Shown: piece after piece, positions 17,896-47,956 of the stretch
How the letters are laid out: the number at the start of each line of letters is the position of its first letter
Numbering within the stretch: the first letter of the stretch is position 1
Assembly: GCA_041660345.1 (NCBI GenBank)
Contig: JBAZWP010000001.1
Coordinates: 1-64,000 of the forward strand
Reading direction: 5' to 3'
Source: Minisyncoccota bacterium
GTDB lineage: Bacteria > Patescibacteriota > Minisyncoccia > Phycocordibacterales > UBA9973
DNA length: 64,000 bases
Made by a program: the position numbers and the translations under genes
The notes under the pieces: generated by a model
The model's input: the letters and a program-made list of their open reading frames with translations, nothing else
Database searches by the model: none
Told to the model about the DNA's origin: nothing

Positions 17896-18357
17896 TTAAA
17901 ATATATCCACCTTAAAATTAGCGTTCATTGCCCAGCATAAACTTGATAACATTTTAATTGTTATGGGTTTTTTACCAAATATTATATCATCAATAAATTT
18001 AGGATCCTTTTTAAGCTTATTTGCAAGATACTCTTTGGTTATATTTCGTTGAACCATTAAGTTTATAATTTTAGACTGCAGCTCCATTTCAATTTTTTCT
18101 TCATATTGCTTTTGGGTTGGCAACATTTTTTTAATATAATTATCAATAACTGATGGTAATGTTCCAATTCGTTTTGCAATATCTTCTTTTGATACACCAT
18201 TGAGAATCATATCTTTTATTTTCTGTTCATATACACCACATTCAATAAGTGCATTAATAACTGCAGTTTCAGTCATCTTTGTTTTTTTAGATATTTCTTC
18301 AATTTGTAATCGAATGTTTTTAATACTTGGGTTGAACATTTTCATTATATCATTCAT
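17896..18357 (-). CDS. putative DNA-binding / regulatory protein
   Basis: 153-aa helical ORF; first gene of the minus-strand block at the convergence point; HTH-like segment; weak call. Confidence 0.3.
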   Translation of the reverse strand: MNDIMKMFNPSIKNIRLQIEEISKKTKMTETAVINALIECGVYEQKIKDMILNGVSKEDIAKRIGTLPSVIDNYIKKMLPTQKQYEEKIEMELQSKIINLMVQRNITKEYLANKLKKDPKFIDDIIFGKKPITIKMLSSLCWAMNANFKVDIF

Positions 18358-19994: not shown

Positions 19995-20023
19995 AATATA
20001 TACTAAAAAATAATTTTTGTCAA
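19995..20023 (-). promoter_or_regulatory. consensus sigma70 promoter cassette (TTGACA-17-TATATT)
   Basis: Minus-strand TTGACA at 20018-20023 and TATATT at 19995-20000; member of a repeated intergenic element family. Confidence 0.55.
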
Positions 20024-20334
20024 GCTTTAAAAAGTGTACCATCATCTTTTAAGTATACATCTATTAAAGCTGGTTGATCGAATGGGATAACAGTATGAGT
20101 AGTTTGTAACCAACCTAAAAAATCAATATACTTTTCTTTTTTAACTATTATATAGCCACCTTTTTTCATTAAATAATCTAATGGTTTTTCTATATCGTCT
20201 GTTAAAAATATACATGAGTCCTTTATACATTCCTTTTTTTTATTGTTCCAATATTTATACCAATATTTTTCTTCGCTTGTTTTAGCTTTTGGAACTAATT
20301 TTGAAGGAATTAATCTAACTAGTGTCGTTATCAT
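20020..20334 (-). CDS. hypothetical protein
   Basis: 104-aa ORF. Confidence 0.3.
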   Translation of the reverse strand: MITTLVRLIPSKLVPKAKTSEEKYWYKYWNNKKKECIKDSCIFLTDDIEKPLDYLMKKGGYIIVKKEKYIDFLGWLQTTHTVIPFDQPALIDVYLKDDGTLFKA

Positions 20335-20591
20335 TTTTGTTTAAAGTTACTACATGGATATTTTTTTAAAGCCGCCTCAATTGATACTGGGCAGTCTTTA
20401 CAAAGACTTGCACGTCGTTTATTTGGAACTACACATACTTTAGTGCATGTATCGTGATAGTCATAATCACAATCAAAGCATTCTTCATTGTCTTTGCTAT
20501 AAGTAATTCCTTTAGGACATCCATTAGTCTTATTAAATGCTACTTGTTTTTCTAATTTATCTAACTTTTTTAATGTCTTTTTGTAGTTCAT
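20331..20591 (-). CDS. Cys-rich small protein
   Basis: 86-aa ORF with 9 Cys. Confidence 0.3.
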   Translation of the reverse strand: MNYKKTLKKLDKLEKQVAFNKTNGCPKGITYSKDNEECFDCDYDYHDTCTKVCVVPNKRRASLCKDCPVSIEAALKKYPCSNFKQK

Positions 20592-20853
20592 GATTATCCC
20601 TTATTCTATGTAGTTCATCGAATATATTATTTGCATCATAACTATATAGCTGCATATTATGTAAAACATTATTTGCTAATTCTTTTTGTTTATCATTATA
20701 TTCAAAATGACTTAGTATTCTTTTATGTTCATCTTGTCGCATTTTATCTAAATGATATGTCGCTGGGTATTCCTCCATTGTTTTAACGACACTAATATAT
20801 GTATGTATTGCTACTAGTAGTTTTGCATAATCTGATGGTTCTGAGTATTTCAT
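20557..20853 (-). CDS. hypothetical protein
   Basis: 98-aa ORF. Confidence 0.3.
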   Translation of the reverse strand: MKYSEPSDYAKLLVAIHTYISVVKTMEEYPATYHLDKMRQDEHKRILSHFEYNDKQKELANNVLHNMQLYSYDANNIFDELHRIRDNHELQKDIKKVR

Positions 20854-21506
20854 GTATGAATGTCCACCACAATAATTCCATGATTGTCTGGGTTAGCCTT
20901 TTCATCACAAAGTCGCATAGTTCTAACTTCATCATCTGGTGTATGCATATAATTTGTAAAAGGAGGCACCACTAAATCTTTTGAGTATGCTTCATAAAAT
21001 TTAATTATACAACTAGAGTTATACAACATTTGACCGGTATAATCTTCTTTTTCTAATCCTTTTACAACATTAGCTGTTTTTTCAAAAACTTCAGCAAACT
21101 TTGTAGTTAACTCCCTTTGGAATTGTTTTATATCATATGGTAATATTAGTCTATTTTTGATAGCTTCTAAATTATCATTACCATAATGACTAAGTTCATA
21201 TATAATAATACTCCATGCTAAATCCAGTACATGTTCGTATCTATTATCCAATTTCATTATCTCGGTATAATATTCATCTCGACCTCGCCAATCATTTTCT
21301 TTTACAAGCTGTAACACTTCATTCTTTTTATTTACAATGATTGCGGGTTGATACCAATTATTTTCATCACAAAAGTCAATTGCATATGCTTCTTGAAAAT
21401 AATTGTTAACTGCTTCGCTAGTCCATTCAAAATCAGTTGTATTAACTAAAAAAAGATAATTTGCATGCATACTTTTACTCCAATTTATTAAATAGTAATA
21501 TATCAT
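20850..21506 (-). CDS. hypothetical protein, possible partner domain of the adjacent RNA ligase-like protein
   Basis: 218-aa ORF immediately downstream of the ligase-like ORF with overlapping ends. Confidence 0.3.
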   Translation of the reverse strand: MIYYYLINWSKSMHANYLFLVNTTDFEWTSEAVNNYFQEAYAIDFCDENNWYQPAIIVNKKNEVLQLVKENDWRGRDEYYTEIMKLDNRYEHVLDLAWSIIIYELSHYGNDNLEAIKNRLILPYDIKQFQRELTTKFAEVFEKTANVVKGLEKEDYTGQMLYNSSCIIKFYEAYSKDLVVPPFTNYMHTPDDEVRTMRLCDEKANPDNHGIIVVDIHT

Positions 21507-22080
21507 CCTTACAAAAATCTTTTAGTTTTTGTAACCAAATATTGCTCTTAATTTTAAACATTAAAGGTTGATTCTTCTTGGTTGATTTACATACAACACC
21601 TTCAAATGTCATATTTTGTAGTTTACTGTTTTTAACGCTATTGTAAAATTCATCTGTAATATTACCATGATATAACAATTTTGCTATATCAAAATCTTGA
21701 AACCATTCTATAAATTCCTTAGGTTGCATCATTCCTTTTTTATATAACGATACATCGAATAGGACTACATCAAAGTTATCATTTTCAACATGGTTTCCAG
21801 CAAATGATTTACTACCATAAAATTCAAAAAAACATACAGCTTCGGTTTGTCTTTTCTTTAAGAATAAAAGGTTTAAAAGTTCATACTTGGATTGTATAAT
21901 ATATACTGCTTTTCCTAAAATAGGTTCATTTTTATCAAGTAGTCGATGTCTTGTTCCAAATTTATAAAAGCCGTTTTTTCTACTCCATTCAGCTCTAATA
22001 TTAGAACCATCTATTTTATCAAAACAATAAAAAGGTTCACCCTTTACTATGTTTTTAGTTATTGAAGGATATTGTTTCAT
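21475..22080 (-). CDS. RNA ligase-like nucleotidyltransferase domain (Rnl2-like)
   Basis: N-terminal YPSITKN...CFDKIDGSNIR resembles the T4 Rnl2 YSSLEN...EKIHGTN motif I (KxDGxN lysine-adenylate site). Confidence 0.45.
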   Translation of the reverse strand: MKQYPSITKNIVKGEPFYCFDKIDGSNIRAEWSRKNGFYKFGTRHRLLDKNEPILGKAVYIIQSKYELLNLLFLKKRQTEAVCFFEFYGSKSFAGNHVENDNFDVVLFDVSLYKKGMMQPKEFIEWFQDFDIAKLLYHGNITDEFYNSVKNSKLQNMTFEGVVCKSTKKNQPLMFKIKSNIWLQKLKDFCKDDILLFNKLE

Positions 22081-22440
22081 TTAATCCTCGATAACTATTG
22101 TATGATTTGGATGAAGTTGTTCTTCGATTATTTCATCTATACTTGATCTATTTGAAAAGAATCTATCTTTAATATCAGGTAGAAACTGTTTTAAAATAGC
22201 TTTAGTTACTCTACCTTCAAAAATATCATGAGAGTATATGAAATGTTCTGAATGGTCTTCTATACGGAGTCTAGAAGGTATATACACATATGTACCTATA
22301 CCATGCCATCCCATAAAACCCTTACGACGAACTAGATAAACTTGACCTTTTTTTAAAATGACTTTACCTTCTGCACCAAAGTCTGTACCATGGGCATTTC
22401 GTGGTAAAGTTAACTGTTTATCAAGTAAAGTAAATTGCAT
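22081..22440 (-). CDS. hypothetical protein
   Basis: 119-aa ORF. Confidence 0.3.
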   Translation of the reverse strand: MQFTLLDKQLTLPRNAHGTDFGAEGKVILKKGQVYLVRRKGFMGWHGIGTYVYIPSRLRIEDHSEHFIYSHDIFEGRVTKAILKQFLPDIKDRFFSNRSSIDEIIEEQLHPNHTIVIED

Positions 22441-22441
22441 A

Positions 22442-22825
22442 TTACAACCTTATTAGTATATCGTTTATAATTTGATTCCAGCATTGATTCCATTCTATAT
22501 CACTTACATTAAGTGCTGCCTTAACTGGAGTATATACACGATCATCCTGATTAAAAACCTTAACTGTCTTTATTGCTCTAATCATAGCATACTTTGTATC
22601 TATTTTATCTATTTTATGATCACCTTTAATTAAAATTTCAAGAGGAGTTGGTGTTGTAGGTTTAATATAATGTCTTTTTATAAACTTCCTTACATTAGAA
22701 GGATCTGATTTAAGTTCATTTGCTATTTTAGAGTAACTATAACCTTTGTTAACTAGTTCTTGAACTTGATTTTTAAATAGCTTTTGAGGATAACCATTGA
22801 ATAGTATTTCATTCATATCTTCCAT
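22442..22825 (-). CDS. HTH protein sharing a C-terminal ALNVS domain with the 405-aa HTH-repeat protein
   Basis: N-terminal LVNKGYSYSKIANEL HTH-like module; C-terminus YTPVKAALNVSDIEWNQCWNQIINDILIRL paralogous to the C-terminus of 24347..25564. Confidence 0.4.
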   Translation of the reverse strand: MEDMNEILFNGYPQKLFKNQVQELVNKGYSYSKIANELKSDPSNVRKFIKRHYIKPTTPTPLEILIKGDHKIDKIDTKYAMIRAIKTVKVFNQDDRVYTPVKAALNVSDIEWNQCWNQIINDILIRL

Positions 22826-23262
22826 TCCCCTAAATATTCATAAAATATTTTAAGTACTCGAATAAGTAACTGATGATCTCTTATAAATACTTTATCATTT
22901 TCATTTTCCCACTGTTCAAAAAATATCTCTTTAAATAAATACCCCTCAGTAATATTAAGCTGAGGATTTGTATATTTTATAAAGAATCCTTTATCATAAT
23001 ATTTATTATGTGAATGCCATAGCTGCCCACCTTCGATTAACATTTCATTAGTATACCCCTCCAATTCTTTTAAAATATCATCTTCATGGTGAAGATAAAA
23101 ACAAATTTCCATTGTCCTATTATTTAGAGGTTCTTTACAAAGCTTGCACTTTATATAATAATCTTTTTCTACACTATCATAATGGTCATCGTCTTCTATA
23201 TAATTATGGCATTGACGACATTCAGGATATTCTGGATATCTAGCTAGTATATTACTTTTCAT
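22813..23262 (-). CDS. Cys/His-rich hypothetical protein
   Basis: 149-aa ORF with CRQCHNY...CKLCKEP. Confidence 0.3.
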   Translation of the reverse strand: MKSNILARYPEYPECRQCHNYIEDDDHYDSVEKDYYIKCKLCKEPLNNRTMEICFYLHHEDDILKELEGYTNEMLIEGGQLWHSHNKYYDKGFFIKYTNPQLNITEGYLFKEIFFEQWENENDKVFIRDHQLLIRVLKIFYEYLGEWKI

Positions 23263-23444
23263 ATTTTACCTTTTTTAAGTAATTTTTCTCGCACCTTATT
23301 TTTTAAATAAGGTAAATCTGTTGTTAAATTACACTTATATAATTTAGCAGCCTTAATCCAACATGGCATTTCTGAAATTTTAACTTTTCCAGAGCTGCAA
23401 TCAAAGTTGCCATTATTATAAAATTTACATTTCGTGCAATTCAT
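23259..23444 (-). CDS. Cys-rich small protein
   Basis: 61-aa ORF. Confidence 0.25.
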   Translation of the reverse strand: MNCTKCKFYNNGNFDCSSGKVKISEMPCWIKAAKLYKCNLTTDLPYLKNKVREKLLKKGKI

Positions 23445-23655
23445 TTTCTAAAAACTGTGTATAAGCAAATTCAAACGATAACTTTTCCTTAGCACATTTT
23501 GCAAAGTTATGTAAACTTACTTGGTTTCCATCCTCAAATAGTCTAATAACTTCATTAATAGTAATATCCTGTGCTCTTAATAGTTGACCATAGTATTCTT
23601 TATATATTTCTTTTTTTTCTGATTCTGGGTACACAACCATATTCCTCCGACCCAA
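23425..23655 (-). CDS. hypothetical small protein
   Basis: 76-aa ORF. Confidence 0.25.
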   Translation of the reverse strand: MGRRNMVVYPESEKKEIYKEYYGQLLRAQDITINEVIRLFEDGNQVSLHNFAKCAKEKLSFEFAYTQFLENELHEM

Positions 23656-24334
23656 CTAGTGGGGCTAAAGCGCCATGCATCAAAGCAACATTATCTGGTG
23701 TGGTAACGTATTGATAAGCAAGCGCTACTGCAATACCGAATGTATTACCACTATGACCTGGATCAATATCTACCAATTTTATCTGGTCCTCATAATCAAG
23801 TTTATGAAAATCTTTAATTGCGTCGCCTGTTTTTAGCTTATCAGCTATTTTAATAGCTTCTGTGCAACAAAACATTTCATAGTCTTCATAGTCAACCCTG
23901 AAATTACGGTTATTCTTTCTAAACTTATTAATTCGTTTTTGGAATACTTCTGGTAAATTTCTATAAGCTTCATCGAGCTTACTTTTATTTTCCTTGAACT
24001 TTTTCTTTTTATCGTCTTTCATTTTTTGTAGTTCTTTTTTATGTAGCGCATCTTGTTCTTTAGGTGTATTATACCTTACAGTATGTGATTCACCATTTGG
24101 TTTGATAATATCGATACCTCTGATAATACCACCCCATTCAGCATTACCATACAACCTAATTGTGTCACCAATCTCAGGTATTACATCACTTACATTATCC
24201 ACATAGCAACCAAGGCAATCAGTGCATGTAACACTATAACCACCATCGCTACTATGCCTAACTTCTTCTATGGTCTTTTTGGTATAATCAAGGTCAGTAC
24301 GCTTATACCTAGCTTGTTTAGCTGTAAGCATCAT
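23600..24334 (-). CDS. hypothetical protein
   Basis: 244-aa ORF with a Lys-rich central segment. Confidence 0.35.
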   Translation of the reverse strand: MMLTAKQARYKRTDLDYTKKTIEEVRHSSDGGYSVTCTDCLGCYVDNVSDVIPEIGDTIRLYGNAEWGGIIRGIDIIKPNGESHTVRYNTPKEQDALHKKELQKMKDDKKKKFKENKSKLDEAYRNLPEVFQKRINKFRKNNRNFRVDYEDYEMFCCTEAIKIADKLKTGDAIKDFHKLDYEDQIKLVDIDPGHSGNTFGIAVALAYQYVTTPDNVALMHGALAPLVGSEEYGCVPRIRKKRNI

Positions 24335-24346
24335 TTTTAAATACCC

Positions 24347-25564
24347 TTATATTTTATTAAATAGGTCACCGATTATAGCTTCCCAGTACATATCCCATTG
24401 GGCGTTTGATACATTAAGTGCAGCTCTGACAGGTATATATAACCCATGATTCTTATCGAGCACCTTAATTGATTTAATCGCCCTTAGTATAGCGTTTTTA
24501 ATTTGATCGCTATACTCAATTATATTATCAACCTTTGGCTCAACTTTAATTGGTTCAACCACCTTAATTGGTTCAACCTTAATTGGCTCAACCTTAATTG
24601 GCTCAACCTTAATTGGCTCAACCTTAATTGACTTTGGCGCAAATCGTCTTTTAGGTATATAGTTTATATTGTACTTTCTTATATAATCGCCTATTGTTGA
24701 TTGAGTACAATGAAAGTGCCTAGCTATTTTTTCTTGGCTAAGACCCTGGTTAACTAATTCAATCAATTCACCCTTGTCTATATTTAATACACCTCTTTGA
24801 TTAGTGTATTTAATGTTATGTTCCTTGATAAAAGTGCCTACGGTTGTAGCTGAAACGCGAAAATCGTTTGCTATGTCAGTTAGGTTATTACCCATCTTAA
24901 TTAAAAGCTCTATACGAGGTATATCACGTTCTGTAATTTTAGTGTGCTTATAATTTATATTATTGTCACGAATATACTTACGTATAGTTGAACTACTAAC
25001 ATCGAAGTATTTAGCTATATCATCTACACTAAAACCTTCATTAATGAGCTTGATAAGCTCACCATTATTTAAGTTATATGATATATTCTTTATAGGTATA
25101 CCATAATATTCAAGTATACTTTTAACTGCGGCGTGGCCTATTTTTTCAATCTTATTACCATGCTTTTCATCTAGGTACTTAGCAATCTCACTACATGTTT
25201 TATTTTGATTTACATATAATTCAATTGCTTCATCTTTTGAAATATACTTAATGAATCTGGGTATACTCTTTTGTTCCTTCATTAGTATACTTGTAATAAC
25301 AGCTGTAGACATCGAGTACTTCGTTGATGCAGCGTTAGTTCCAATTTTATCAATATCATCTAGTAATTGGTTATAACCAATGCACTCACGGATATTTGAA
25401 ATTTTAGACGTGTGTGGGATTTTATTGCTATTTATAAGAATTTTCCTCACATCAAAGTATGTTCTACCAAGCTTTTTTGCTATTTCATTAATATCCTTTG
25501 TTTCAGTTTCAAAAATTTCTACGATAGTTGGTTTTTTAGATTCAAATTTTACAGTTCTTACCAT
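24347..25564 (-). CDS. multi-HTH repeat protein with (PIKVE)n linker and C-terminal ALNVS domain
   Basis: Four ~50-aa internal repeats each containing an HTH-like module (xxSxxEIAKYL / DIAKYFDVSSSTIRKYI / DIANDFRVSATTVGTFI / KIARHFHCTQSTIGDYI); six tandem PIKVE pentapeptides; C-terminus paralogous to 22442..22825. Confidence 0.5.
   Translation of the reverse strand: MVRTVKFESKKPTIVEIFETETKDINEIAKKLGRTYFDVRKILINSNKIPHTSKISNIRECIGYNQLLDDIDKIGTNAASTKYSMSTAVITSILMKEQKSIPRFIKYISKDEAIELYVNQNKTCSEIAKYLDEKHGNKIEKIGHAAVKSILEYYGIPIKNISYNLNNGELIKLINEGFSVDDIAKYFDVSSSTIRKYIRDNNINYKHTKITERDIPRIELLIKMGNNLTDIANDFRVSATTVGTFIKEHNIKYTNQRGVLNIDKGELIELVNQGLSQEKIARHFHCTQSTIGDYIRKYNINYIPKRRFAPKSIKVEPIKVEPIKVEPIKVEPIKVVEPIKVEPKVDNIIEYSDQIKNAILRAIKSIKVLDKNHGLYIPVRAALNVSNAQWDMYWEAIIGDLFNKI
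24536..24632. repeat. 15-bp in-frame tandem repeat (~6 copies, unit tcaaccttaattggc)
   Basis: Direct reading of 24536-24632; encodes the (PIKVE)n tract of the HTH-repeat protein. Confidence 0.8.
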
Positions 25565-25586
25565 TGGTTTTCTCCATTTAAGATTG

Positions 25587-25937
25587 TTATTGTATTTCTT
25601 TTAGTTTTCTAATAAGTTTAATCTTTTTGTCAAAGTATGCTAACCATTCATCTCTTATTTGCATATATTCTAGATTGATAATATTGCTTAATGGTTTTTG
25701 AATTGTACTACCTGATTTTTCATAACATTCAAGTACTGTTCTTAATATATCTTCGTATTCTTTTATAGTTATATTGTAAAATTCATTTGTCTTTAAAATA
25801 TCCTTAATCCATAATATTTCTGTATCTGTTAGATTATATACATAATTATCCTTCAAAAAGCCATCTAATCTGTTAATAATTGTTTCATAATATTTTAGGC
25901 TATTATAATCAGTTAGTTTTAGTTTTACTTTATTCAT
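25587..25937 (-). CDS. hypothetical protein
   Basis: 116-aa ORF. Confidence 0.3.
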   Translation of the reverse strand: MNKVKLKLTDYNSLKYYETIINRLDGFLKDNYVYNLTDTEILWIKDILKTNEFYNITIKEYEDILRTVLECYEKSGSTIQKPLSNIINLEYMQIRDEWLAYFDKKIKLIRKLKEIQ

Positions 25938-25939
25938 TT

Positions 25940-26155
25940 TTAATCTTCATAAGCAGTGTAAAATTCAATTCCAAGTTTATCTGGATTTATATCTATAATG
26001 TTAAACATTAAAAATAAAGTATCTACGCAATTCACTTCTTTTTTCCATTTTTTAGCGTCTTTAATATTATCTACCCATTCTTCCCCAGACCAGTATTTAT
26101 CTGTATTAGTGGCAGTATCCGTTTTACCTATATAATACCTTTTTGAAGTTTTCAT
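25940..26155 (-). CDS. hypothetical small protein
   Basis: 71-aa ORF. Confidence 0.25.
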   Translation of the reverse strand: MKTSKRYYIGKTDTATNTDKYWSGEEWVDNIKDAKKWKKEVNCVDTLFLMFNIIDINPDKLGIEFYTAYED

Positions 26156-26487
26156 TCGGCAGGTCCTAAGCGATAGCCATCAGCCTTGATAAGATGCATT
26201 CTTACCATTTTATCGGTAGTGATACCTTGTACATAGTTGACAAAATCTAAATTCTCATCATAGCTACCTTTGGTAGCTGTGAAAAACTCTATAGCAGCCA
26301 ATGTTATAGGAATATCTTCAACATTGACCCATGCTGAAATCTGTGCTTTCCAGTCTTTTGGATCGCAAACCTTATTAAACGCTTTCAGTAAGTCGCCTCG
26401 AGTAACATCTTTACCATCGATGCGGCACACTAGTTGGTTGTTAATATCGTTTTCTTCTTCAACATTTAAATTTTTTGGGTTGTACAT
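26152..26487 (-). CDS. hypothetical protein
   Basis: Start moved to ATG 26487 (MYNPKN) directly behind AGGAGATtaac and the promoter cassette. Confidence 0.35.
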   Translation of the reverse strand: MYNPKNLNVEEENDINNQLVCRIDGKDVTRGDLLKAFNKVCDPKDWKAQISAWVNVEDIPITLAAIEFFTATKGSYDENLDFVNYVQGITTDKMVRMHLIKADGYRLGPAE

Positions 26488-26512
26488 GTTAATCTCCTTA
26501 TTTATGAAACAC

Positions 26513-26541
26513 ATTATAAACTAAAAAAATTAAAATGTCAA
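26513..26541 (-). promoter_or_regulatory. consensus sigma70 promoter cassette (TTGACA-17-TATAAT)
   Basis: Minus-strand TTGACA 26536-26541, TATAAT 26513-26518. Confidence 0.6.
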
Positions 26542-26544
26542 GCT

Positions 26545-27084
26545 TTATTTTACAGCACCTATTGGTATTTCCTCAAATGGAACTAGTAAATCACCTAATT
26601 TTTTAAGTGCCTCAATAATCCATATTATTTTTGATGAATATGAAAAAGGCGCATCATAATCCCATAAATCGATTATATCATTATCATAGTAGTCTTGTTC
26701 TGTTTGAACATGATAGTTTTCTTCAACTTCTTCAGCGCTGATTTCTTTTATATCTGAAATTATTCTTATAGCTTCGTCTTTATCATATTCTAAATAATTT
26801 TTGTCATCTAATAGCTTACCGAAAATATAATCATAATTCGATTCACAAAATCCTTTGAATCTTTTTGATCTTATCATGGTAAGGTCAACTCTAAATATTG
26901 CATGACCTATATCACCATAAATGATAAGGTAACCACCTTGATATGTCACATAGTATGAATATGTAATTGTACCTTCCTTGTGACAATATATAGTGTTACT
27001 AGTTATCTCGGTTAGTATATGGTCCTTAAATGCGTTTTTAGCAAATCCTTGTATTCGCTCGAGGTTATCTTTATTTACTATCAT
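26545..27084 (-). CDS. hypothetical protein
   Basis: 179-aa ORF. Confidence 0.3.
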   Translation of the reverse strand: MIVNKDNLERIQGFAKNAFKDHILTEITSNTIYCHKEGTITYSYYVTYQGGYLIIYGDIGHAIFRVDLTMIRSKRFKGFCESNYDYIFGKLLDDKNYLEYDKDEAIRIISDIKEISAEEVEENYHVQTEQDYYDNDIIDLWDYDAPFSYSSKIIWIIEALKKLGDLLVPFEEIPIGAVK

Positions 27085-27617
27085 ACTACTTGTTTAGCCT
27101 TAACAACTTTTACAAAAGACGCATCATATTTTAATGCACTTTTTATTTTTTTAACGATTTCTTTTCTATCACCTTTATAATTGTCGCATCGTTCTTTTAA
27201 GCACAATTCTAATTGTTTAACAAGTTTTGTTTTGTCAGGTTTATGAAAATCAGGTCCACTATACCTAGTAAGCCTCCAAGGTGAACTATCCTCGTTACAT
27301 TTTAAATAGCAAGTTTGGCATTGTGGACATTGATAACTGTATAAAGCACAAAGAGCGCATGTATCACCACCTCTGTCTAAATACCAAAAGCCTGCTTTAT
27401 TTATTTTATTTTGATTCCATTTAATATAAGATAAGTATAACCCAATTAAATCAGTGTCCTCATCATATTCTACTTTTTCTACAAATGTGTACATACCACC
27501 TAATATTTTATCTGTTTGATGTAATACTTCATTATTTATACTGAGTATTATTTTAGTTATCTTAGGAAGAGTTAATTTTATCTTAATTTTAGTTATTTCT
27601 TCAAATAATGTTTCCAT
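27081..27617 (-). CDS. Cys-rich SYIKWxQN-family protein (paralog 1 of 4)
   Basis: LSYIKWNQNKINKAGFWYLDRGGDTCALC...C...C motif block shared with three other ORFs. Confidence 0.4.
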   Translation of the reverse strand: METLFEEITKIKIKLTLPKITKIILSINNEVLHQTDKILGGMYTFVEKVEYDEDTDLIGLYLSYIKWNQNKINKAGFWYLDRGGDTCALCALYSYQCPQCQTCYLKCNEDSSPWRLTRYSGPDFHKPDKTKLVKQLELCLKERCDNYKGDRKEIVKKIKSALKYDASFVKVVKAKQVV

Positions 27618-39581: not shown

Positions 39582-39610
39582 ATTATATACCAAAAAAAAT
39601 CATTTGTCAA
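39582..39610 (-). promoter_or_regulatory. consensus sigma70 promoter cassette (TTGACA-17-TATAAT)
   Basis: Minus-strand TTGACA 39605-39610, TATAAT 39582-39587. Confidence 0.6.
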
Positions 39611-39706
39611 GTCTTTTTTTAGCAATAAAAAAGGCTAGAACCTATCACTAATAACTGAGAATAAACCCAAATTACCGTGTGGTAAACTAGCCTTATAATT
39701 CTATAT

Positions 39707-47157: not shown

Positions 47158-47186
47158 AATATACAATAAAAAAAGTAAAATGTCAA
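47158..47186 (-). promoter_or_regulatory. consensus sigma70 promoter cassette (TTGACA-17-TATATT)
   Basis: Minus-strand TTGACA 47181-47186, TATATT 47158-47163. Confidence 0.5.
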
Positions 47187-47428
47187 GCTGTTTTTTTAAA
47201 TATCCAATGAGCTATTATTTGACCATGACATCTTAAATTATCTAATGATTGGTCTTTATCATGTAATTCAAAATTACCACAGTAACATGACATTATTAAG
47301 AAATTGTTTTGTTTATAGCTTTCAATTAATTGCGATATATCAATCTTATTGTATTGCACAGCTTGATAATAAAGTTTTAAACTTTCACTTAATGTATATA
47401 CTTTAGTGGTGTACTTAGACTTTCTCAC
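47183..47428 (-). CDS. hypothetical protein
   Basis: 81-aa ORF. Confidence 0.3.
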   Translation of the reverse strand: MRKSKYTTKVYTLSESLKLYYQAVQYNKIDISQLIESYKQNNFLIMSCYCGNFELHDKDQSLDNLRCHGQIIAHWIFKKTA

Positions 47429-47668: not shown

Positions 47669-47956
47669 CTAACTTTCGCGTATTATATTACATAATTCAT
47701 TATTATTATGTTTAGTATAATATTTCTCTACTGGTGAGAGCATTTCTTCAAAGATACTACTAGCAATAACTGCAAGTTCATCTTCAGTTGTATAATTATA
47801 ATTATCCCTAGCTTGTTTTATAGCTTCTTTTCCTTTTAATATAATGCTATCCTTAATATCTATTTTAGTTTTAGGTTTAGGTTTAGCTATAGTTTTAGGT
47901 TTAGCTTTAGTTTTAACAGCTTTAGTCTTAGTTGTAGTAGTCTTAGTTTTATTCAT
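47669..47956 (-). CDS. Lys/Thr-rich histone-H1-like small protein
   Basis: N-terminal TTTTKTKAVKTKAKPKTIAKPKPKTK tract encoded by ggtttag-type DNA repeats. Confidence 0.35.
   Translation of the reverse strand: MNKTKTTTTKTKAVKTKAKPKTIAKPKPKTKIDIKDSIILKGKEAIKQARDNYNYTTEDELAVIASSIFEEMLSPVEKYYTKHNNNELCNIIRES

Follow-up and report, generated by a model that had tools for sequence, protein, structure and literature searches.

Tandem helix-turn-helix (HTH) repeats joined by linkers are known from Cbp1 and Cbp2, each of which reads a clustered regularly interspaced short palindromic repeat (CRISPR) unit of ∼25 bp; Cbp1 is restricted to the Sulfolobales (PMC3597662). These crenarchaeal proteins contain two to three imperfect HTH repeats with short linkers and read a long DNA site. 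Phage homing endonucleases, such as the protein P0001, the HNH endonuclease of Bacillus phage PBC2 and members of the phage protein family phrog_8446, carry HTH modules of ∼48 amino acids (aa) in tandem. The window analyzed here, a stretch of 64,000 nucleotides (positions 1 to 64,000, forward strand, of contig JBAZWP010000001.1 in assembly GCA_041660345.1), harbors two minus-strand genes that code for a 405-aa protein with tandem modules of the same type (24347..25564) and for a 127-aa protein with a single such module (22442..22825). Both open reading frames (ORFs), and the C-terminal peptides quoted for them in an initial annotation made from the DNA sequence, were found exactly as described. 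The pair can be understood as paralogous DNA-binding proteins, each tethered to a common interaction domain, and the probability of this reading is put at about 0.5. Judged by its sequence, the 405-aa protein is similar to the multi-HTH DNA readers (homing endonuclease arrays and Cbp1) but is a member of neither group, since it lacks a nuclease domain and misses the cut-off for Cbp1. The novelty lies in the architecture, i.e., an HTH array, a spacer made by slippage, an orphan domain and a short paralogue, while the kind of protein is already known.

The 405-aa gene starts at an ATG with a GGAGA ribosome-binding site 7 nt upstream. Its product had been described as four tandem modules of ∼50 aa, of which the last three proved to be strong and the first marginal. 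The strong ones, module 4 (aa 161–209, 24938..25084), module 5 (aa 210–257, 24794..24937) and module 6 (aa 258–306, 24647..24793), all on the minus strand, were identified by Pfam and as three copies (160–209, 209–257, and 257–306) by a hidden Markov model (HMM) of the module, with independent E-values (i-E) of ∼1e-28 to 1e-30. In pairwise shuffles they gave z values of 11–22 among themselves, none of 300 shuffles reaching the score, and module 6 was additionally supported by BLASTP; residues 165–306 are wholly taken up by HTH modules. Module 3 (aa 108–160, 25085..25243, minus strand) is divergent, with an enlarged turn. It matched Pfam Clr5 with 28.4 bits (cut-off 22.3) and HTH_38 with E 0.09, and its support as a repeat was marginal (z ∼3.5 against modules 4 and 6; module HMM i-E 0.005, at 108–132). 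Residues 1–107 showed no sequence repeat by the module HMM or in shuffles. An AlphaFold single-sequence model of the protein, with a mean predicted local distance difference test (pLDDT) score of 56.6, contained six three-helix units, at 14–45, 64–105, 110–153, 167–200, 212–248, and 264–297. Unit 1 (aa 14–45, 25430..25525, minus strand) is predicted only, with helices 14–20, 25–32, and 36–45 at pLDDT ∼70–82; it showed a weak match to the NCBIfam near_KaiC regulatory domain at 19–48 and z values of at most 1.2 against modules 4–6. The putative unit 2 (aa 64–105, 25250..25375, minus strand; helices 64–77, 87–98, and 100–105) was modeled with low confidence at pLDDT ∼30. Hence, the array comprises three clear HTH modules, one divergent module and two units known by structure prediction alone.

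The HTH nature of the modules agrees with the initial annotation. The matches of the 405-aa protein to Pfam HTH_38 (53.5 bits, gathering cut-off 27), HTH_23 (51.9, cut-off 24.6), HTH_28 (52.0, cut-off 25) and HTH_7 (45.0, cut-off 23.8) were about twice the respective cut-offs, and the modeled HTH modules form three-helix bundles with helix-turn-helix geometry. As far as the sequence allows, the modules are genuine HTH domains, which supports DNA binding by both proteins. In serine recombinases, IS30 and IS630-Tc1, to which these Pfam families (HTH_7, HTH_38, HTH_23, and HTH_28) relate, the HTH accompanies a recombinase or DDE catalytic domain, whereas here no such domain is present and the HTH is multiplied in tandem. 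For sigma-70 region 4, a Sigma70_r4_2 match of 34.5 bits was obtained. Membership in the sigma-70 family was nevertheless rejected, as the only matches were to Sigma70_r4_2 and r4, on the HTH at 175–199, and an N-terminal Pfam scan of the 405-aa protein gave no match to sigma-70 region 2. Elsewhere in the window, a 153-aa protein (17896–18357, minus strand) contains two HTHs, one of the XRE type (HTH_3) at aa 99–141 and another at aa 49–78 with a weak resemblance (i-E 6e-4 by the module HMM) to those of the 405-aa protein.

The second gene, at 22442..22825, more likely codes for 124 aa from the ATG at 22816, since this start has a better-spaced ribosome-binding site than the ATG at 22825; it also shares an ATGA with the stop codon upstream. 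The single HTH module ascribed to its product was recovered at aa 10–58 (22652..22798, minus strand) by the module HMM and in the structure model, and is homologous to modules 4–6 of the 405-aa protein (z 9–11), although the short protein alone remained under the Pfam cut-off (HTH_38, 19 bits). BLASTP of the two proteins gave E 2e-17, and module 6 together with the C-terminal domain aligned as one contiguous stretch to the short protein, in which a non-repetitive linker of 20 aa separates the HTH from the C-terminal domain. Sequence comparison thus identifies the two as true paralogues.

The C-terminal domain common to both proteins comprises ∼55 aa and is located at aa 348–405 of the long protein (24350..24523) and aa 73–127 of the short protein (22445..22609), on the minus strand in each case. 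That the domain is shared was put beyond chance by every comparison. The C-termini are 44% identical over ∼60 aa, and the highest Smith-Waterman score reached in 2000 shuffles was 50, compared with 126 for the real pair (z = 23). Reciprocal phmmer searches in which only the final 65 aa of each protein were run against the full set of 788 stop-to-stop segments in the window gave E 8e-13 and 1e-12, with no third copy among these segments. Pfam yielded no match at E ≤ 10, and a PDB sequence search yielded none either (best E 1.1). When a profile of the two sequences was run with HMMER over 1.84 billion representatives, the sole match was the 127-aa protein, three residues shorter. Pattern scans of IMG/VR contigs and JGI metagenome contigs did not find a relative of the domain, and neither collection yielded a relative of either protein; a search of GTDB genomes for relatives of either protein returned one generic HTH match, and fold searches against BFVD and PDB returned generic HTH matches only. 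The term modular family, used in the initial annotation, is therefore an overstatement: there are two genes, and in these collections the domain occurred in no other protein. The roles suggested there for the pair, multivalent repressor or nucleoid organizer, are putative.

The domain is predicted to adopt an alpha-beta-beta-alpha-alpha topology, which was common to two independent models, those of the long and of the short protein; in the latter the elements are H77–86, E89–92, E97–100, H101–105, and H109–126, at pLDDT 65–75. The idea that it is an HTH module in degenerate form was rejected, as hhalign against the HTH-module profile gave a probability of 0.2%. This value, the lack of Pfam and PDB matches and the topology shared by the two models together indicate, at the level of sequence and prediction, that the domain is separate from the HTH modules. 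An HNH (beta-beta-alpha-Me) interpretation of the hairpin and helix was likewise discarded, the short copy being devoid of histidine. In both copies the final helix (NAQWDMYWEAIIGDLF in one, DIEWNQCWNQIINDIL in the other) is acidic to neutral and hydrophobic, with many Trp, Ile and Leu residues, and Lys and Arg are absent from it except at its very end. Since such a helix is atypical for DNA recognition, the domain may well be a protein-protein interaction module rather than a further DNA reader.

The array and the C-terminal domain of the long protein are joined by a spacer of Pro, Ile, Lys, Val, and Glu (aa 307–347, 24524..24646, minus strand), predicted to be disordered or extended; residues 300–352 are disordered in the AlphaFold model. 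The in-frame 15-bp repeat reported to encode its PIKVE units was confirmed by Tandem Repeats Finder (TRF), which placed 6.2 copies at 24535–24630 with 89% matches and a score of 144. The array translates in frame as KSIKVE-PIKVE-PIKVE-PIKVE-PIKVVE-PIKVE-PKVD. The units in its middle are exact, and synonymous changes, together with an insertion and a deletion of 3 nt each, occur toward the edges; an exact center with decayed edges is the pattern expected of an origin by slippage. Scanning of the window for the unit CCAATTAAGGTTGAG found five occurrences at ≤2 mismatches, all in this array, with 0.21 expected, and the possibility that the unit is a dispersed binding site was dismissed, as there was no further copy anywhere in the window. 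Pro-rich periodic spacers between domains are known from TonB, with its (EP)n(KP)n segment, and from the Ala/Pro linkers of the E2 component of 2-oxo-acid dehydrogenases. The PIKVE spacer resembles these in being a short, periodic domain separator of Pro and charged residues encoded by a tandem repeat of DNA, but the unit sequence differs and no homology is claimed. The linkers of the Cbp proteins, in contrast, are basic and located between HTHs.

The only independent assembly of the locus consists of two Logan contigs (SRR18595301) that are 100% identical to 19998–24602 and 24601–26529 of the window and meet at 24601/24602, within the 15-bp array. Their outer ends fall in two of the five copies of a promoter element described below (19998 and 26529). 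All of these ends reflect the breaking of contigs by the assembler where repeats are exact; they are silent on the copy-number polymorphism anticipated in the initial annotation. The break inside the array also accounts for the absence of the 405-aa protein from the protein collection.

An element of ∼55 nt was found five times on the minus strand of the window, ending at 20025, 26543, 37119, 39612, and 47188, where none was expected by chance. Its layout, AAAGCTTGACA-N6-TTTTTTTAG-TATATAAT-GTGTTTCATAAATAAGGAGAT, corresponds to a perfect or near-perfect sigma-70 −35/−10 pair followed by a conserved leader and a ribosome-binding site. The promoter core of this extended, sigma-70-like family (19995–20025, 26513–26543, 37089–37119, 39582–39612, and 47158–47188) can be written GCTTGACA-N6-T7AG-TATATAAT, after which follow the leader and the ribosome-binding site (GTGTTTCATAAATAAGGAGAT). 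Upstream of the two HTH genes, the closest promoter is the copy at 26513..26543 (TTGACA-17-TATAAT, 12/12), and the next member of the family, at 19995..20025, provides the downstream limit of the presumed transcription unit. Between the copies ending at 26543 and 20025 lie ∼15 abutting or overlapping genes, both HTH genes included, and no minus-strand terminator-like site was found between 26513 and 20025. Both HTH genes would then belong to a single transcription unit served by a polymerase of the sigma-70 type, and the unit is probably expressed early, owing to this type of polymerase.

The genomic setting is that of a phage. The window has 31% G+C and densely packed ORFs. A plus-strand block at 1–17 kb includes a 907-aa tail sheath with distant kin in Tunturiibacter phage Tunturi_5, Bacillus phage G and mycobacteriophages, and the minus-strand block at 17.9–64 kb contains mostly small ORFs of unknown function together with an RNA ligase, a nucleotidyltransferase and a sugar epimerase. 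No tRNA was found in the window, and a near-DNA search of it against 50,697 phage records gave no match. NCBI labels the source contig of 64,167 nt 'MAG: Candidatus Paceibacterota bacterium' (MAG, metagenome-assembled genome), but the gene content, with its tail sheath, phage-type ORFs and lack of tRNA, marks it as a large tailed phage. Hence, the phage that carries both HTH genes is large, tailed and uncultured, and its contig was either binned in error or belongs to a candidate phyla radiation (CPR) bacterium as a phage or prophage. The downstream neighbor of the 405-aa gene (23600–24334, minus strand, 244 aa) has no Pfam family; its 203 homologues, with 40–50% identity on many unrelated phage contigs, mark it by sequence as a widespread uncharacterized phage protein family. 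Five related loci located through this neighbor share that gene alone with the window, and no HTH gene occurs in them; there is thus no conserved synteny around the HTH pair.

Several other features of the window were observed. An 804-aa ORF (29819–32233, minus strand) matched Pfam MVP_shoulder (E 4e-30), a Vault_3 repeat (5e-8) and SPFH/Band_7 (9e-7), and represents a major-vault-protein-like protein on a phage-like contig. A second pair of paralogues, first noticed as an 84-nt DNA repeat, consists of Cys-rich proteins of 178 aa (27081–27617, minus strand) and 156 aa (34151–34621, minus strand) with 39% identity (E 3e-31). Tandem repeats were also present at 63353–63509 (a 76-bp unit, 2.1 copies, 98% identity), overlapping the 3′ part of a 58-aa ORF (63413–63589, minus strand) and the gap downstream of that ORF, and at 47863–47915 (a 6-bp/18-bp repeat, TTTTAG in 8.8 copies).

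The best sequence matches of the 405-aa protein anywhere are those to phage homing endonucleases. Among 5.8 billion clusters, P0001 was the only match at E ≤ 1e-3 (E 1e-6), and it combines an N-terminal GIY-YIG nuclease with a long HTH array. The phage families of the PHROG collection that have tandem HTH arrays matched at E 1e-12 to 5e-18, led by phrog_8446 ('HNH endonuclease', E 5e-18), the other leading matches being 'DNA binding protein' families and a T5 D5-like regulator family. Searches with tblastn retrieved four phage records only, among them the PBC2 HNH endonuclease, PADLOC gave an HEase match at E 5e-5, and Pfam NUMOD1 matched one stretch at 179–198 with 22.8 bits, exactly at the cut-off. 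The long protein may accordingly be a nuclease-less remnant, or a domesticated form, of a free-standing homing endonuclease that kept its tandem-HTH target recognition, the short gene being a further fragment. We regard this as unlikely, though it comes closest among the alternatives. Residues 1–164 and both C-terminal domains gave no nuclease family in Pfam at E ≤ 10, be it GIY-YIG, HNH or LAGLIDADG, and the want of histidine in the short copy excludes a conserved beta-beta-alpha-Me/HNH site. The PIKVE spacer and the orphan domain are peculiar to the 405-aa protein among these relatives. Both ORFs are intact, with ribosome-binding sites and an extra domain conserved at 44% identity, which argues for selection on a non-nuclease function. 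The best NCBIfam match was HTH_Cbp1 (NF040595; E 9.4e-16, profile positions 27–134 of 135), the top Foldseek match in PDB was the CRISPR repeat-binding protein 2lvs, and the window does hold a promoter family conserved over ∼55 bp, so that a Cbp1-like, architectural or chromatin-like binder of repeated DNA (CRISPR repeats of the host or the five promoters of the phage) could be envisaged by analogy with the linked HTHs of Cbp1 and Cbp2. The HTH_Cbp1 score of 58 bits is, however, far under the curated cut-off of 140 bits of this equivalog family, the Foldseek match was non-significant (E 0.097) and came from a low-confidence model, and any tandem HTH would give such similarity. Neither a CRISPR array nor a periodic array of binding sites was found in the window, and unlike Cbp1, with its confinement to the Sulfolobales, the 405-aa protein is phage-encoded, ∼three times longer and extended by the spacer and the C-terminal domain. 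A Cbp1-like role is thus very improbable.

Other explanations were also weighed. The C-terminal domain could be a further HTH or winged-helix variant that binds DNA, in which case both proteins would be pure DNA readers lacking an interaction module. By eye, the predicted helices H101–105 and H109–126 with the turn NVS suit the classical hydrophobic spacing, and helix 1 of the domain is basic; still, the domain gave no Pfam match in the HTH clan even at E 10 and has practically no profile similarity to the HTH modules of the same proteins, and the putative recognition helix lacks the basic character of a DNA reader in either copy. This makes the variant doubtful, somewhat more so than an endonuclease remnant. 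An N-terminal HTH followed by an oligomerization domain is also the organization of small terminase subunits, of which the short protein might be one, and weak PHROG matches to such subunits were obtained for the short protein (E 0.03–0.1) and the long one (3e-8). However, these matches cover the generic HTH only, the gene lies among small non-structural genes beside the RNA ligase, on the strand opposite to the tail-sheath structural block, and no large terminase gene is adjacent; a small terminase is accordingly scarcely credible. The most elaborate proposal, a self-contained regulatory circuit, likewise appears a long shot. Here, the five extended early promoters, or other repeated DNA, would be occupied by the 405-aa protein, which would bridge or oligomerize through the orphan domain, a new oligomerization fold, on a PIKVE tether of ∼13 nm. 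The 124-aa paralogue would be a cap or an antagonist that competes for this interface, and how far the tether reaches would be tuned by the number of 15-bp copies.

In the preferred interpretation, that of two paralogous DNA-binding proteins with a common interaction domain, the long protein would string together up to six three-helix units, three of them clear HTH repeats of the resolvase/IS30 type, and the array would recognize an extended DNA site one module at a time, by analogy with Cbp1/Cbp2, Pax/Myb and the DNA-binding tails of homing endonucleases. The (PIKVE)n spacer of ∼41 residues, derived from 15-bp slippage, would join this array to the 55-aa C-terminal domain, which would self-associate or dock on a common partner. 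The long protein would then be a multivalent and the short one a monovalent DNA-binding adaptor for one complex, most plausibly regulating the transcription of phage or host DNA. Some points weigh against this interpretation. Binding of the pair to DNA in vivo, like the role of the C-terminal domain, the early expression and the regulatory function, are what we infer from the features described above. The C-terminal domain is known from two sequences only, both in this window, and its models are of moderate confidence at best (pLDDT 65–75 for the short protein, <50 for the long one); ALNVS-x3-W suits the hydrophobic spacing of a classical HTH by eye, so the domain could be an HTH variant. The early timing derives solely from the likeness of the promoter to the sigma-70 consensus.

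The pair has no bearing on long-standing open questions, and in the 15-bp array it offers an example of a repeat that breaks short-read assemblies. It also presents a specific and cheap target for DNA affinity purification sequencing (DAP-seq) or electrophoretic mobility shift assays (EMSA) in a phage lineage with almost no annotated regulators. If the interpretation is correct, the locus would provide a compact natural multivalent DNA reader and a monovalent paralogue with one docking domain, and a lineage-restricted domain would be added to the folds without known relatives.

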